Of a stretch of DNA of 64,000 nucleotides, positions 1,431 through 48,659 are shown in pieces. Both the position numbers and the translations under genes were made by a program. This DNA is from Rhynchobatus australiae (taxonomy: Eukaryota), in the NCBI GenBank assembly GCA_034780895.1, contig JAUZTB010000135.1, forward strand, positions 44,886,781-44,950,780, in the 5' to 3' direction. The notes below the pieces were generated by a model that saw only the letters and a list, made by a program, of their open reading frames with translations, searched no databases and was not told the origin of the DNA. The first letter of the stretch is position 1; every line of letters starts with the position of its first letter.

Positions 1431-2906
1431 TTTGATGTTATTCTATCCTTGAGAAGAAAGAGTAAAACTTCATTGAGTTCTTTCAGACAATTAAAACTAC
1501 AATGTGACTATAAGCCTGTGCTGATGGTTCAAAGACTTAGGCCAAAAACTACAAATGTTTTTAAATCAGAGAAATTGTTATTAATAGTTTTCTAGAGATG
1601 GTTATGCATTGCTTTGCAATTTCTGTAATGGGTTCTGGCATCTCTGTATCAGCATTTTGGCTGCAGGCAGTGAGGACTGATTATTTACAGACTGACAATT
1701 GACAATATTTCAATGCATAAAACTTTTGATTTGCATATTCATCCAAAGTTTGATTAAAAATTCCAGATTAGAAGCAACTACTTTCAGCAAAACCACATTG
1801 GGAAGGATATTTTTCCTTTTTTAACTGAGGGCATTCTGTTGATTCTAGAAAAAATTCTCTTTTTATTCTTTAAAAATAAATGAGGCTTCAATGAAAGTAG
1901 CATCAGAATTAATGATATTCAAGGGCATAAAGAACAACATATTTCTGGATTTCGAGGAGCCATACAATTCTGCAAACCGCTAATCTATATCAATAATGTT
2001 AATTAGGTTATAAAATTATACAGGAGCTGACCTGGAGTTGTGTTAATCTGGCAATGTGCATCTCCATTAACTGATAGGGTTTCACCTATTTTGCTCTGTA
2101 TATTGCACTCTTTAGACCACTGTCAATAAGCCAGGTGAGGGAGGAATGGAATAGCACTTCCCAGTAAGTTGAACAAGGTAGTTTCCGTGATCCTTTCTGT
2201 ATCCTCAACTATGCTCCTTTCAGTGCTTTCTCTTAACAAGTTCAGTGCGTTTCCGCATTGAGCCTGACTGAAATACTGAGCAGGAATGCTACCAAACACA
2301 TACACGCTGCTTCAGAAGAATATGTTTTTTAAACAGTTCAGTGATAGTGGCTTGGAATAAAGTTAAGGGAAAGGATTTCTGCTCTAGTAACAAAACAATT
2401 CCCTGTACCCACATGTGGATAGTTTTGCTGGCTTTTTTCTGCCCTAAATTTTCTTATTTTCCACACCTCATGATAGAATTATTTTTCCAGAGGAATTTGT
2501 TTCTCTGCATTAATCCTCAAGGACCAATTTAATGTCATAAAGATAAAAATAAGATATGAGTAATCAGAAATGGAAAATCATCACTGTGAATGACACACTT
2601 GAATTGCATGGTGGTACTATATCCTTCAAATTGTGTTGTGTCTCCTCTTAAGGATATCTACCATATTTAAATCTGTATCCATTGTATTTCCTGTTCAGTC
2701 CTGGTTCTGAGCATTGTTGCAGTGGCCTAGACACTCAGTACTAGGGACCAAGAAATTGTGGAGCAATGTGGATACTGAGGAATGTGTTGCTCAGCCACTG
2801 TTGCAAGAGGGACGAATAGAAAATTCAATGGGGAAAATTATTCTCCAATAACCACTTGTCACCTTCTTTGATATTGGAGTGGAGCTAAAGTTGAAAGAGT
2901 TACTGC

Positions 2907-3898
2907 TTACTCGTGTTGGAGGAGCTGATCCCTTGCTTTTTGAATTTTGGCCACCGACTCCCTATCGTGAGCAGCCAGGCTGCTGTTGTCGCTAGATTCA
3001 TCAGGGATAACAGTGAAGTACTCCTTACTAATCACTGCACATGTACCACCGTCCGCAGCAATAGGTAAACCAAGGCCATCCGTTTCTGAAGGGCTACCAG
3101 CCTGACAGCAGCCAGCTCCACTGCCGTCCTCGTTTCGTCAGCCAGCGTCTGGAGCACGCTGGTCATTTGCATGACCTTACAGGGCAGTCAGGCTGTGCCA
3201 TACGTGGGGAAGGCTATCATCCAGAAGCTCCCCGCCTCCGCGATGGCCTTCCTGTTTCTGTGGCCGTTGCATGCCGGGTTCTCCCCAACTTCCTCCAGAG
3301 CGTGGATACAGAGCACCACTAACGCAGGAAAGCAGCAGCTGCACCAGCTCTTGCAGAGCCACCGGTAGGCAAAGTAGCCGCAAATCCAGTGGTTCCCGTT
3401 CAAAGTGCAGGGAGCCCCCAGCTTAGCGACACCACCGGCAGTGGTCACGGAGGCACTTTGATACCAGTTTCGCTCACACTCACTATGACCAACTGAAGCA
3501 GTGGAACTGTATTCATAGTAGAGTCTGCACCAGCATTCCCGTGGCTTACTCAGCGTCTGTGGGATGGCTCTGAGGGTGGGGACTTGGGTGGACGTCAGAT
3601 TGTAGGAAGGGAAATACAAGGTCCTGAAACACCCACCCCATCGGGAATCCCTGGAAGGACTTTGCTGCAGTGGTGATGGGAGTGGTGTGGAACTGCCATC
3701 CGCCCCCTCGACGCTCCAAACTGAATTATTGAATCCAACAGGCGCAAAAGGAAAAGGAAAGCCGATGGAAACAGTTTATTCGAAGAGTATCCAGTGGAAT
3801 CTATATTAGTGGTAGAGCTTCACCGGCGTGTGCTGGGGTTCGGACGCAAGGACCACAGTCTGATTCATTGGAGTGCTGGCGAATTCATAAGCAGCTCT
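2907..3898 (-). pseudogene. Endogenous retrovirus env remnant (gamma-type SU-TM), disrupted
   Basis: NESDCGPC (CXXC, 3860-3846)…LPLI*IPL; NGNHWICGYFAYRWL…W…C; RNRK/AI furin-like site (3259-3248); fusion peptide FWMIAFPTYG; ISD LVALQKRMALVYL, then a frameshift, then AADGGTCAVISKEYFTVIPD (decayed CX6CC, 3041-3015). Confidence 0.88.
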
Positions 3899-4110
3899 GC
3901 GCCCTTGTATCTTCTACCAGAGGCTCCATTCGGCGACTGTATCACTGGCTAAGACCTGCAATTCAAAAGGGGCACCTGCCTGGCGGGGAGCAAGTGGCAG
4001 TGGTTGTTCGACAGCTTAATTTGCTGCTTCAAAAGCGGCCTGTTATTCGGGTCCCCATAGGAATGTGGCTGTGTTACGAGAGATTAAGCCATGGCAGAAA
4101 GGGGCTATGA
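3899..4110 (-). mobile_element. Endogenous retrovirus pol fragment (RT connection/tether), ERV-L/ERV-S (class III)-like
   Basis: One frame: RNTATFLWGPE*QAAFEAAN*AVEQPLPLAPRQAGAPFELQVLASDTVAEWSLW*KIQGRR. Matches the class III pattern FEWGPEQ…ALPLGP…PMxLEV…AVWSLWQ. All three stops sit at expected Gln codons. Confidence 0.8.
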
Positions 4111-4396
4111 ATATCTAAATCTACACTGCATGCCAAGGCTTGTCCCGACGCCCTGCAATGGCCTCAGTGGTATCTAGGCATCNNNNNNNNNNNNNNNNNN
4201 NNNNNNNNNNNNNNNNNNNNNNNNNNNNNNNNNNNNNNNNNNNNNNNNNNNNNNNNNNNNNNNNNNNNNNNNNNNNNNNNNNGTCTCCACTCTCAGTCCT
4301 GTTGCAAGGATTCAACCCAAAATGTCAACAATTCCATTCCTTCCACAGATGTGCCTGGCCCGCTGAGTTCTTCCCGCAGATTGTTTGTTGCACTAA

Positions 4397-4975
4397 ATGA
4401 CACTATGTGGTAAGATTTTGTTTGTTCCCTGGCGTTATGAAGGATGGGCCTGGCCACATAACAGAACATTCAGCTGGACCACACTGCACTACCTGTCCCC
4501 CGTAGAAAGGTTTGTGCAGAAGGACGCCTTTGACCACAAGCCAATCAATAAATACATGATCCTGCAGGAAAAGGAGATGGTGGATACTCTGGGATGGTTT
4601 CAAGAGTGGATCATCAACAAACACCAAGACCTTGCTTGGTTGGTGGTGAGAAGGGTCCTTCCCCCAGTCAGAGCCTTCATGCATGAGAGTCTCAGTCACC
4701 ATATTGCCCTTAAGACTATCAGCCATCTCCTTCTGGAGTGTGGGTTGCCAAGAAGATATGGAAAGTGATTTTGGGTCTTTTGCTGAGGTTCATTCCAAAC
4801 AGGCTCGTCCCTCCTGAGGTAAATATTAACTGCTCCTGGAAGATCACTGACTTGGTGAAAGGCACTTTGGTCTGTCTGAAACATGCTGGTCACAAGAAGT
4901 TCTTCACAGCTGTATGCTGCAGGTTGGTACATTCTGATTGGGGTAAAAAATTCAATAGATTCTTTAAACTCTAAG
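4397..4975 (+). mobile_element. Tx1/L1-clade LINE ORF2 C-terminal fragment
   Basis: NKHQDLAWLVVRRVLPPVRAFMH…TISHLLLEC, the zf-RVT-type region of Tx1 elements. Confidence 0.75.
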
Positions 4976-9798: not shown

Positions 9799-9938
9799 GG
9801 AATGATTTAAACTTGACAAAGGTTCCTCGAGCACAGACCTTCCCTAGCTACATCTCAGAACAGAGTCATGAGCACCAACACTTATTATCTCCATCTAGTG
9901 GCTATGGATCAAGCTACAGCTCTGGGCTGGCCCAGTGA
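9799..9938 (+). CDS. DOK6: DOK6 (docking protein 6) last coding exon; upstream exons not found in window
   Basis: Polypyrimidine acceptor tttttctctccccaacag, phase 1. Reads (G)NDLNLTKVPRAQTFPSYISEQSHEHQHLLSPSSGYGSSYSSGLAQ*, matching the DOK6 C-terminus (…SRAQTFPSYAPEQSEE…SSSYGFSYSSSLIQ*). Tail-to-tail with CD226 as in other vertebrates. Confidence 0.92.
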
Positions 9939-12145: not shown

Positions 12146-12352
12146 GACACAAGAGACTGCATATGCTGGAATCTGGAGCAATAAACAAACTGCTGGAGAA
12201 GCTCAATGGGTCAGGCAGTATCTTTCAAGGGAAATGGACAGTAGACCCTTCATCTGGACTCTGATGAAGAATCTTGATCTGAAACGTTGACTGTCCATTT
12301 CCCTGTATAGATGCTGCCTGACCCATTGAGTTCCTCCAGCAGTTTGCTTGTG
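12146..12352. mobile_element. Penelope-derived fold-back repeat with hammerhead-like core
   Basis: Arms 12186-12242 and 12290-12346 are reverse complements. CTGATGA (12261-12267), then a short stem, then GAAAC (12281-12285). Confidence 0.75.
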
Positions 12353-12584
12353 GCCTGGAAGATGATTAATTCAGGTCACATTTGATATAAATAAACATGC
12401 AGGCCACACCTCCTCACTTCACATATCAGATCACAATTAAAATTTAAATATTCATTATAACATTAAGGTTGATGTAAGACAATCAAAGAACCAAGGAATT
12501 CCTGATATTTTTACACTGCAACCATACAAGAACATTCTACAAAGTGTTACGGACTAGGACTATTAGTGAGTGTCCCTTTTAGAT

Positions 12585-44100: not shown

Positions 44101-44452
44101 TGCTTAGCTTCTGCTCTACTTAACTTTTAACTTCCAATCCACATGAGGCAAAAAAAAATCCATGCATCTTGATCCATTTTTATTTTATTCTTATGACCTC
44201 TGGTTCAGAATTCACAATCCGAATTAAATGATGTGTTTTATCTCTGTGCCTGTCAGTATTTAAAATAAAATCTATATCATTTTTTCATCACTTCTTTCTC
44301 TAATAAAAGTGAGTTCAGATCTACTGGGATTTTTCTAAATTAGAACGAGAAATGACAATTACATTCTTGAATTATCCCTGCCACAGAAGAGCTGGGGAAG
44401 GAGAAGCAATGGCTAAAATGGATAAAAATAGACTCTTTATCTTAACGCTTAC

Positions 44453-44797
44453 CTCTTCCCACACCGACGTCAAAGACTTTGGTCCAGTTTCCATCATTCA
44501 TGATAACTTGACAGTGATATCTTCCCATATCATTTGCTGTCACATTCTGTATGGTCAGACTGATGTTTGGAAAGTGTGAGCAGCTACACTGGATTCTTTC
44601 CTTGTAGTCATAGCCAATGAATAATGATGGACTTGTGAAGTCTTGATGAAATATTGTGTTTATTTCTTCTTCAGTCACTTGTTTCCACATCACCTGTTGA
44701 ACATGGCTCCCATTTGGATTTTCACAGAATAAGGTCATATTGCTCCCTGGTACCAATCGTATGTGAGTGTCTGCTGCTCGACCTCTGGAAAATTTTG
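44453..44797 (-). CDS. CD226: CD226 Ig domain 2 exon
   Basis: Acceptor atatttttaaag, donor G|gtaagc, 345 nt, phase 1-1. …LVPGSNMTLFC…VQQVMWKQ…CSH…ISLTIQNVTANDMGRYHCQV…; canonical C-W-DxGxYxC. Confidence 0.92.
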
Positions 44798-45059
44798 CTT
44801 TAAAAATATTTTAAAAAGGCAATTAGTAGAACACAATTTGATATCTGGTATCATCATGTTCAAATTTTGAGTCAGTTTGAAGTGAGCTAGATTGCTTTAG
44901 TTCACTGCATCATTGTCAGCAGATGGTTAGCTTTGAGTTGGAAAAATGCACACATTTTTTCTAAAAAAAAATTAAAATATTGGAGAACTGTCACCTATGG
45001 CCTTCTCAGTAACCAATGAGCTGGCAGTTTCAATCACTTCAAAGCAACAAGATGTTCTG

Positions 45060-48100: not shown

Positions 48101-48166
48101 CCTCTCAATCACCACCACCCTCAGCATAGAAAAACTGATTCTATAGGTTGAAGCATTGTATCTTAC

Positions 48167-48499
48167 CTGGGTTCATTATTTCAATTTTTTTCTGCAATGT
48201 CCCAGCAGGAAAAGTATTAATGAAACATTTATAAATGCCCTCATCTGCTGCTGATGCGTTCAACATAATATCTCCATTGATGAATGGTGACAAAAATTTA
48301 ACACTGTTGTTATATGCAGGAGATATGCTCTTTCCAAGTTTAGGGTGAAATACAGCAATGCTCTTCTTCCAACCATTTACATTCTTCTCCCAGGACAGCT
48401 GGGTCAACTTGGTTGTCTGAGGAAATGCACACCTCAGCTTGATTACATCCTGAAGTTTAATTGTGGAGTCAATATTCTGGTGCTCTTTGCAATTCACAC
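48167..48499 (-). CDS. CD226: CD226 Ig V domain 1 exon
   Basis: Acceptor ttgatatttcag, donor G|gtaaga, 333 nt, phase 1-1. …KLRCAFPQTTKLTQLSWEK…IAVFHPKLG…DEGIYKCFINTFPAGTLQKKIEI. Carries PVR/nectin-family signatures LTQ, AX6G and TFPxG. Confidence 0.93.
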
Positions 48500-48659
48500 C
48501 TGAAATATCAAGAAATTAGAAGCTTACCACAGGGAAACTGCAATGTTCAGTGTAATACATGCTTCACAATGCCATTACTGCCTCGTAAACATCAGGATCC
48601 AGATTCAGAGTTGTTATTTTCTACTCGGTTCCAAATGGAAGGCTCATGGGAAATTACAA

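Follow-up and report, generated by a model that had tools for sequence, protein, structure and literature searches.

The remnant of an endogenous retrovirus (ERV) in the genome of Rhynchobatus australiae raises the question of whether a class III (ERV-L/S-like) pol and a gamma-type env belong to one virus of cartilaginous fishes and whether that virus is an undescribed elasmobranch lineage, as had been proposed from the letters of the DNA before any database search (hereafter the sequence-only reading). We analysed the locus within a stretch of 64,000 nucleotides of contig JAUZTB010000135.1 (the window) and compared it with proteins, reference loci and public reads. The remnant very probably derives from a batoid ERV of the ERV-L/XtERV-S branch that is present in many copies and carried a stutter-type gamma Env; the copy in the window is dead and internally deleted. 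Judged by trees and motifs, the pol scraps are assigned to class III and the env to the gamma type, each belonging with stingray sequences, and the family has many copies, some continuing into full pol and some sharing the deletions of the window copy.

The remnant is composed of retroviral pol scraps followed by most of env, both on the minus strand (Table 1). Its likeness to ERV relatives is far above chance, with seven relatives giving 39-237 bits on 2911-4182 in tblastn searches and at most 24.3 bits in 50 shuffles. The same stretch has a GC content of 0.54 and a CpG observed/expected ratio of 0.56, compared with 0.37/0.18 and 0.41/0.19 in the two flanks, in agreement with the CpG-richer island of the sequence-only reading, whose motifs (WGPE, WSLW, CXXC, WICG, the cleavage site, the ISD and GGTC) are also found at the claimed places on the minus strand, some of them as remnants. 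The element had been placed at 2907..4110; it does start near 2911, but runs past 4110 through RT scraps at 4085-4165 to an assembly gap, which it meets at 4183 on its 5' side, while its 3' side is cut within env. No LTR, LTR-like repeat or second ERV copy was found in the 64-kb window.

Table 1 Features of the ERV remnant and its surroundings, in window coordinates
Feature	Positions	Strand	Basis or remark
Whole visible ERV remnant	2911..4182	-	tblastn; read-depth step and loose ends near 2911
TM loop (GGTC 3039-3050, other frame) and heptad 2	2911..3058	-	69% to Hypanus P0040
TM heptad 1 (one stop) and decayed ISD (3071-3091)	3059..3205	-	
Decayed SU/TM cleavage site (3248-3262) and fusion peptide (3206-3226)	3206..3262	-	
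Env SU C-terminal part with WICG (3377-3388)	3263..3667	-	
Env SU N-terminal part with CXXC remnant, frameshift-broken	3747..3895	-	
Deletion junction, pol to env	3890..3900	-	alignment switch
RT thumb, then the beginning of the tether, a degenerate RNase H-like domain; three stops	3896..4084	-	
RT scrap, motif B region	4085..4115	-	FCHGL at 4085-4099; by-eye match to P0005
RT scrap beside motif A	4124..4165	-	matches P0005 377-390; weak by itself (E 2.5)
Unsized assembly gap (100 N), hiding 5' continuation of ERV	4183..4282	.	
Terminal coding exon of host gene, DOK6-like	9799..9938	+	acceptor and open frame
Two Ig V-set exons	44442-44810 and 48141-48515	-	

The position that had been proposed for the ERV, antisense within the last intron of DOK6, is consistent with the terminal exon at 9799-9938, of a host gene that we take to be DOK6 from the C-terminus of its protein; an atlas search with this exon gave no match. 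The two Ig V-set exons fit CD226, presumably the downstream neighbour of DOK6. Beyond the gap and outside the ERV, a 123-codon frame at 4397-4768 (plus strand) has no Pfam match and resembles what we assume to be the 3' end of a Tx1-type LINE. At 12178-12354 lies an inverted repeat with 75-nt arms, 83% complementary and 27 nt apart, possibly the remnant of a small DNA transposon.

The window copy retains about 100 pol residues out of roughly 1,100, and the catalytic site, RNase H and integrase are gone. The main piece corresponds to residues 346-410 of the 1,108-residue Pol P0042, matches Pfam RT_RNaseH_2 at E 0.003, under the curated cut-off, and contains WGPE at 4046-4057 and WSLW at 3917-3928. 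The region of P0005, a Hemitrygon akajei protein, that aligns with the motif-A scrap corresponds to residues 158-179 of P0042 and the counterpart of the motif-B scrap to residues 209-220, and the motif-A scrap is covered at family read depth. YIDD, the class III form of the RT catalytic motif (PMC8278194), is deleted from the window copy and present in the sister protein P0005. At the junction with env, the remainder of the tether, RNase H and integrase are missing on the pol side and the leader is missing on the env side. The env had been described as lying directly after pol; the two do adjoin, an adjacency created solely by deletion of the remaining pol sequence and of the beginning of env.

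The env remnant begins with an SU segment (3747-3895) that matches residues 40-84 of the Pristis Env P0004, as well as P0009, P0011, P0015, P0017 and P0034, and whose CXXC remnant at 3846-3857 lies in another frame. The stretch at 3059-3607 is 61% identical to Hypanus P0003, itself a Pfam TLV_coat protein (E 5.6e-15). Heptad 1 carries a 12-codon deletion, seen as a gap against P0003, P0040 and P0004, and other family copies have additional letters at 3130-3133. A frameshift occurs near 3060 and env stops short of the membrane anchor; a single cysteine of CX6CC is kept and the CC pair is lost, and the heptad-stutter glycan site present in P0003, P0040 and P0004 is lost as well. The window copy is dead and decayed: stops interrupt the pol piece three times and TM once, and frameshifts occur in SU and near 3060. 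The Env hallmarks of the sequence-only reading thus hold for a gamma-type family, while CX6CC, the ISD and the cleavage site of this copy have decayed. In mid-SU, the sequence at 3659-3808 is unlike that of most other copies, with low read depth and loose ends on both sides; it is perhaps a variable region, with several env variants in the family.

A captured, functional env of syncytin-like type would be of interest in live-bearing rays, and relatives of the window env do bear names such as syncytin-B-like, while XtERV-S-type Envs are described as grouping with some syncytins (PMC8278194). Those names are automatic, however, and the end branch of the window env in the Env tree is 0.49 compared with 0.06 for its sisters. 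A stop, two frameshifts, the 12-codon deletion and the missing leader and anchor refute this function at the window locus, and the explanation as a whole is scarcely credible.

A HMMER scan of 1.84 billion representative proteins returned 37 matches, 34 on the env side and three on the pol side. Six of the scanned env-side matches are Pfam TLV_coat proteins, a seventh is the gene model P0012 described below, and all three pol-side matches have RT or tether domains. A word-based protein search with the window env let through none of 1,947 candidates, and a PDB search with the window translation gave a single chance match (E 1.2). The nearest named pol proteins are from stingrays, P0005 (Hemitrygon akajei, 67%) and P0108 (Hypanus sabinus, 65%), to which the pol piece scores 90 and 87 bits, compared with 50 bits for the ERV-L-type P0050 and 42 bits for the XtERV-S-type P0060. 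Among the 40 loci compared, gammaretroviral genomes gave at most 26 bits, and snakehead, foamy, epsilon and delta genomes gave no in-register match. A search with the RT of P0005 found 340 proteins, and the 120 that were listed include relatives from frogs, a caecilian, newts, killifish, bichir, lungfish, a turtle, a lizard and many birds. P0050 and P0060 served as stand-ins for ERV-L and XtERV-S, the former as the only listed relative that combines the ERV-L motif (PMC8278194 Table 2) with a dUTPase after integrase and the latter as a Xenopus tropicalis protein that has the XtERV-S motif and the peptide beneath one of the primers of PMC8278194. We assigned the names ERV-L, XtERV-S, snakehead, gamma, epsilon, foamy and delta to the references ourselves, from the motifs of PMC8278194 and from genome length and sequence, and they are not database names; the reference retroviruses so labelled fell into clean clades.

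The RT tree of 37 rows combined 20 selected listed proteins, 16 of 34 reference loci and the window piece, with HERV-S and Gypsy left out of the RT trees. The window row comprises 64 residues, or 19% of the tree columns, and the full RT comes from the sister protein P0005. The window and the two stingray sequences group at 100/99, and this group is sister to ERV-L, XtERV-S, Polypterus, lungfish and other sequences at 96/87, with all ERV-L-related rows split at 100/100 from snakehead, foamy, gamma and epsilon. When those references were removed and P0108 was dropped as too short, a mixture-model tree of 38 rows recovered the same group at 96/90. On these trees the pol piece is assigned to the ERV-L/XtERV-S part of class III, as had been claimed. 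A class I pol is rejected for the window, since the RT tree sets it apart from gamma and epsilon RTs, and a snakehead-like origin is rejected because the RT tree shows no grouping with snakehead retrovirus, represented by a long-branched locus (L003) that we take to be that virus. Scores only reject a Gypsy/Ty3 origin: P0005 reaches 70-73 bits on Ty3 and 149-151 bits on MLV-type RT, with 123-126 bits on foamy RT. Against its 21 best relatives P0005 scores 369-434 bits, in a different library and region.

In P0005, an ERV-L-type gag piece lies right before RT (E 0.001 to P0046), and this layout, taken from a Hemitrygon gene model, is another sign of deleted copies. P0108 ends inside integrase, and many sister lineages have a dUTPase after integrase. 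A separate, well-supported class III clade (P0042, P0044, P0046, P0047, P0049, P0052 and P0053; 100/99), many of whose members have a dUTPase after integrase, mixes frogs, a caecilian, a newt, a killifish and owls on short branches and looks like cross-class transmission.

The nearest named Env proteins are Hypanus P0003 (61%) and P0040 (58-69%), followed by P0004 from Pristis pectinata, which is 46% identical to P0003, so that the nearest named proteins come from Hemitrygon and Hypanus for pol and from Hypanus and Pristis for env. These proteins support a cartilaginous-fish host and by themselves would narrow it to a batoid, most likely one of the stingray group. In an Env tree of 45 rows, from which seven scan matches were left out (pol, chimeric, short or duplicate), the window groups with the two Hypanus Envs at 100/99 and P0004 falls near but outside this stingray clade. 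A 36-row group that includes the window is split at 100/100 from gammaretroviral and delta Envs, and most of its rows have a heptad-1 glycan site, by a rough pattern search, together with the XtERV-S-like form of the ISD. CXXC in SU and the ISD and CX6CC in TM are present in P0003, P0040 and P0004. The tree and these hallmarks place the window env in the non-mammalian stutter subgroup of gamma-type Envs and not with MLV-like Envs, so that its gamma type also stands. A viral contig collection, which supplied the reference retroviruses, held no env relative in 16 stretches, and the pol alignment drew only two weak integrase loci from it; a metagenome scan yielded four env loci in 114 stretches, none with a pol match.

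Several env relatives are of interest in their own right. P0004 (421 residues, Pristis pectinata) and P0006 (419 residues, Scyliorhinus torazame) are Envs with leader and anchor; open stutter-type env frames therefore exist in elasmobranchs, either as captured genes or as young proviruses. P0012 is a gene model of NACHT-LRR type whose last part is an env fragment of the family (residues 828-930, 53% to the window), which is either an insertion beside an NLR gene or a gene-model artefact. Residues 1-64 of P0003, a Hypanus gene model, form a gag-like start with a weak match to class III gag (E 0.064), which suggests another deleted form of the family in which gag is joined to env; an atlas search with this start returned no usable match.

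A rival explanation is a chimera of two families. In this view an ERV-L-like element lacking env was joined once, by recombination, nesting or co-packaging, to a separate class I ERV that had a gamma-type env, and it was this joined and deleted form that spread, so that no intact class III virus would ever have had a window-type env. Most anamniote gamma-type Envs are reported to accompany class I pol, with frequent recombination between env and pol (bioRxiv 2021.11.23.469661), the gag-like start of P0003 resembles class III gag only weakly, and no intact provirus links the halves among the 40 loci, none of which has window pol and window env together. However, the nearest relatives of both halves come from the same hosts at like distances (65-67% for pol and 61-69% for env), the pol half and the env half have similar read depth, and their order and strand are as in a provirus. 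In its N-terminal CXXC, its stutter and its length (some 420 residues for P0004), the env layout matches XtERV-S, and class I pol appears in 0 of the 37 HMMER matches. We therefore consider a chimeric origin quite improbable.

Further copies were sought in four public runs mapped on 2300-4182 at 80% likeness, whose organisms may differ from the window species. Raw reads of run X14 cover the flank at a depth of 0-2 and the element at 21-197, a contrast that indicates tens of copies or more in the family; the number is rough, as 1,047 of the 1,341 X14 reads fit partly and the flank depth comes from a handful of reads. Since 1,073 of these 1,341 reads are less than 90% alike to the window, either the family is old or the window copy has diverged strongly. 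Longer copies exist, as 36 X14 reads and three X1 contigs depart at the pol/env junction with sequence that reads as continued pol, and past 2911 other copies continue into env.

Contig results were drawn from 24 of 2,827 pieces, the longest ones. Listed contigs that are 13-19% diverged bridge the RT deletions in all three contig runs, with X2-16, X5-24 and X1-8 crossing the RT cut near 4084. The pol/env junction is bridged in one of the three by a 31-letter rule: X5-22, at 19% divergence, is the sole listed contig that bridges it fully and thus carries pol and env together in another copy, and X1-6 crosses by just 23 letters. Flank contigs of the same runs differ from the window by 0-6%, so the bridging contigs represent other copies and not the window locus. 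Because diverged copies share the deletions, the deleted layout was copied after it arose, which suggests a non-autonomous subfamily with env retained.

The same contigs bear on the possibility that the family is real but that short-read assembly wrongly placed 2930-4182 in the DOK6 intron, or that the segment is polymorphic there. Two flank contigs from two organisms, X1-1 (0 differences, 2390-2929) and X5-17 (2300-2929), both stop matching at 2929, inside the env frame, and continue with 138 and 1,289 unmatched letters, respectively; no public run contains half of the sampled window words, and the window has 24 gaps. Yet the env frame crosses 2929 without a gap against P0040, X2-15 is identical to the window over 3578-3843 at about flank depth, and the listed contigs are the longest pieces only. 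The stop at 2929 may reflect a polymorphism, a mis-join or an unlisted piece, and the 3' join of the window copy is provisional. An artefact appears improbable, and it would concern the site of this copy while being compatible with a real ERV family.

The closest described system is XtERV-S (Yedavalli et al. 2021), which combines an ERV-L-like gag-pol containing YIDD with a gamma-type Env that has CXXC (CWIC) near the SU N-terminus, a heptad stutter glycan, the ISD and CX6CC, and which is accompanied by 19 internally deleted copies (PMC8278194). The stingray RT is about 50% identical to Xenopus P0060 and sister to the group containing it; the likeness of the Envs is drawn from the published description of XtERV-S. 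XtERV-S is intact and young and lies on a separate branch in another host class, in contrast to the dead window copy. What the deleted Xenopus copies retain is the 5' end of gag; the window form retains most of env. Likeness to MuERV-L/HERV-L lies in the YIDD-containing RT of P0005, the tether and the ERV-L-type gag piece of P0005, and the stingray RT is 52% identical to P0050; ERV-L is described as lacking env (PMC8278194; bioRxiv 2024.03.17.585361), however, and the window element, having env, is not a strict ERV-L. Among mammalian elements, HERV-S and ERV-S.1-Dbi are described as class III gag-pol with env, the latter with an alpha-like Env that has a captured receptor-binding domain (bioRxiv 2024.03.17.585361), and the likeness to HERV-S is taken from this published description.

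Snakehead-like elements form a further point of comparison, with the env-bearing CmiERV lineage I reported from the elephant shark (Han 2015, PMC4422223) and class III in the wide sense (clade Huo) reported from all major vertebrate lineages (PMC6001957). Snakehead retrovirus RT is 31% identical to P0005 and falls outside the ERV-L-related group, and its reference locus L003 has no match to the window env. One 'SnRV-like' clade has been reclassified as ERV-L-related (PMC12287698), so this label is loose. As judged by the trees, the window ERV probably works like, and groups near, XtERV-S and ERV-L, and is neither ERV-L proper nor snakehead-like.

The sequence-only reading knew the pairing from amniote viruses, but it is also described from frogs, where XtERV-S and a second case, AnERV8 (bioRxiv 2024.07.05.601823), combine the two genes, and from a screen of anamniotes. 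In that screen of 974 fish and 19 amphibian genomes, Chen et al. report ERVs with gamma-type env in six cartilaginous fishes, and ERV-SA.a-Ppe is described, with XtERV-S cited, as a class III Pol with a class I gamma-type Env (bioRxiv 2021.11.23.469661). Its pol is termed SnRV-related there, whereas the stingray pol does not group with snakehead retrovirus. The main text of that preprint does not contain the word 'Pristis' or spell out Ppe. We tentatively read Ppe as Pristis pectinata (sawfish), an unconfirmed reading prompted by the origin of P0004, the nearest non-stingray Env, in this species; no paper in the literature searched pairs 'Pristis pectinata' with 'retrovirus'. Given ERV-SA.a-Ppe and the six cartilaginous fishes, an undescribed elasmobranch lineage is doubtful for cartilaginous fishes at large, and the claim may hold for the stingray family, on which no paper was found in a literature search that lay outside Dfam, Repbase and most subscription journals. 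The pairing is thus not new, and the stingray-affine family seems little described in rays.

Gene order, the matching host affinity of the two halves and the XtERV-S parallel lead us to infer that an enveloped class III ancestor entered the batoid germ line and that a shortened derivative, stripped of the RT core, RNase H and integrase, may have been copied in trans by intact helpers, as a parallel to the deleted Xt-S4 to S22 copies in Xenopus. The window copy then decayed, as its stops, frameshifts and lost env 3' end show, and it would make no protein and persist as neutral antisense intron DNA.

As the window locus is a dead fragment, its main value lies in pointing to the family. Through this family in rays, the known range of the pol and env pairing reaches the jawed vertebrates that diverged earliest, and paired RT and TM trees gain a branch; the shared deletions make the family a dating marker in rays. 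Env-bearing relatives of ERV-L are the best handle on whether ERV-L lost its envelope or never had one. A bolder reading, which we regard as unlikely but worth stating, concerns the ERV-L group as a whole: the stingray family, as a deep branch, would indicate that its ancestor already had Env, and the deleted form that keeps env would be a non-autonomous element of an unusual kind. If Env was carried from the start, a stutter-type gamma Env would be ancestral for the ERV-L/XtERV-S group across jawed vertebrates, and mammalian ERV-L would represent a later loss of env in place of a late gain by XtERV-S. In addition, the most-copied form may have shed RT, RNase H and integrase while retaining env, whereas the usual spreader is one that lacks env; such a form could have provided Env in trans to env-less helpers.
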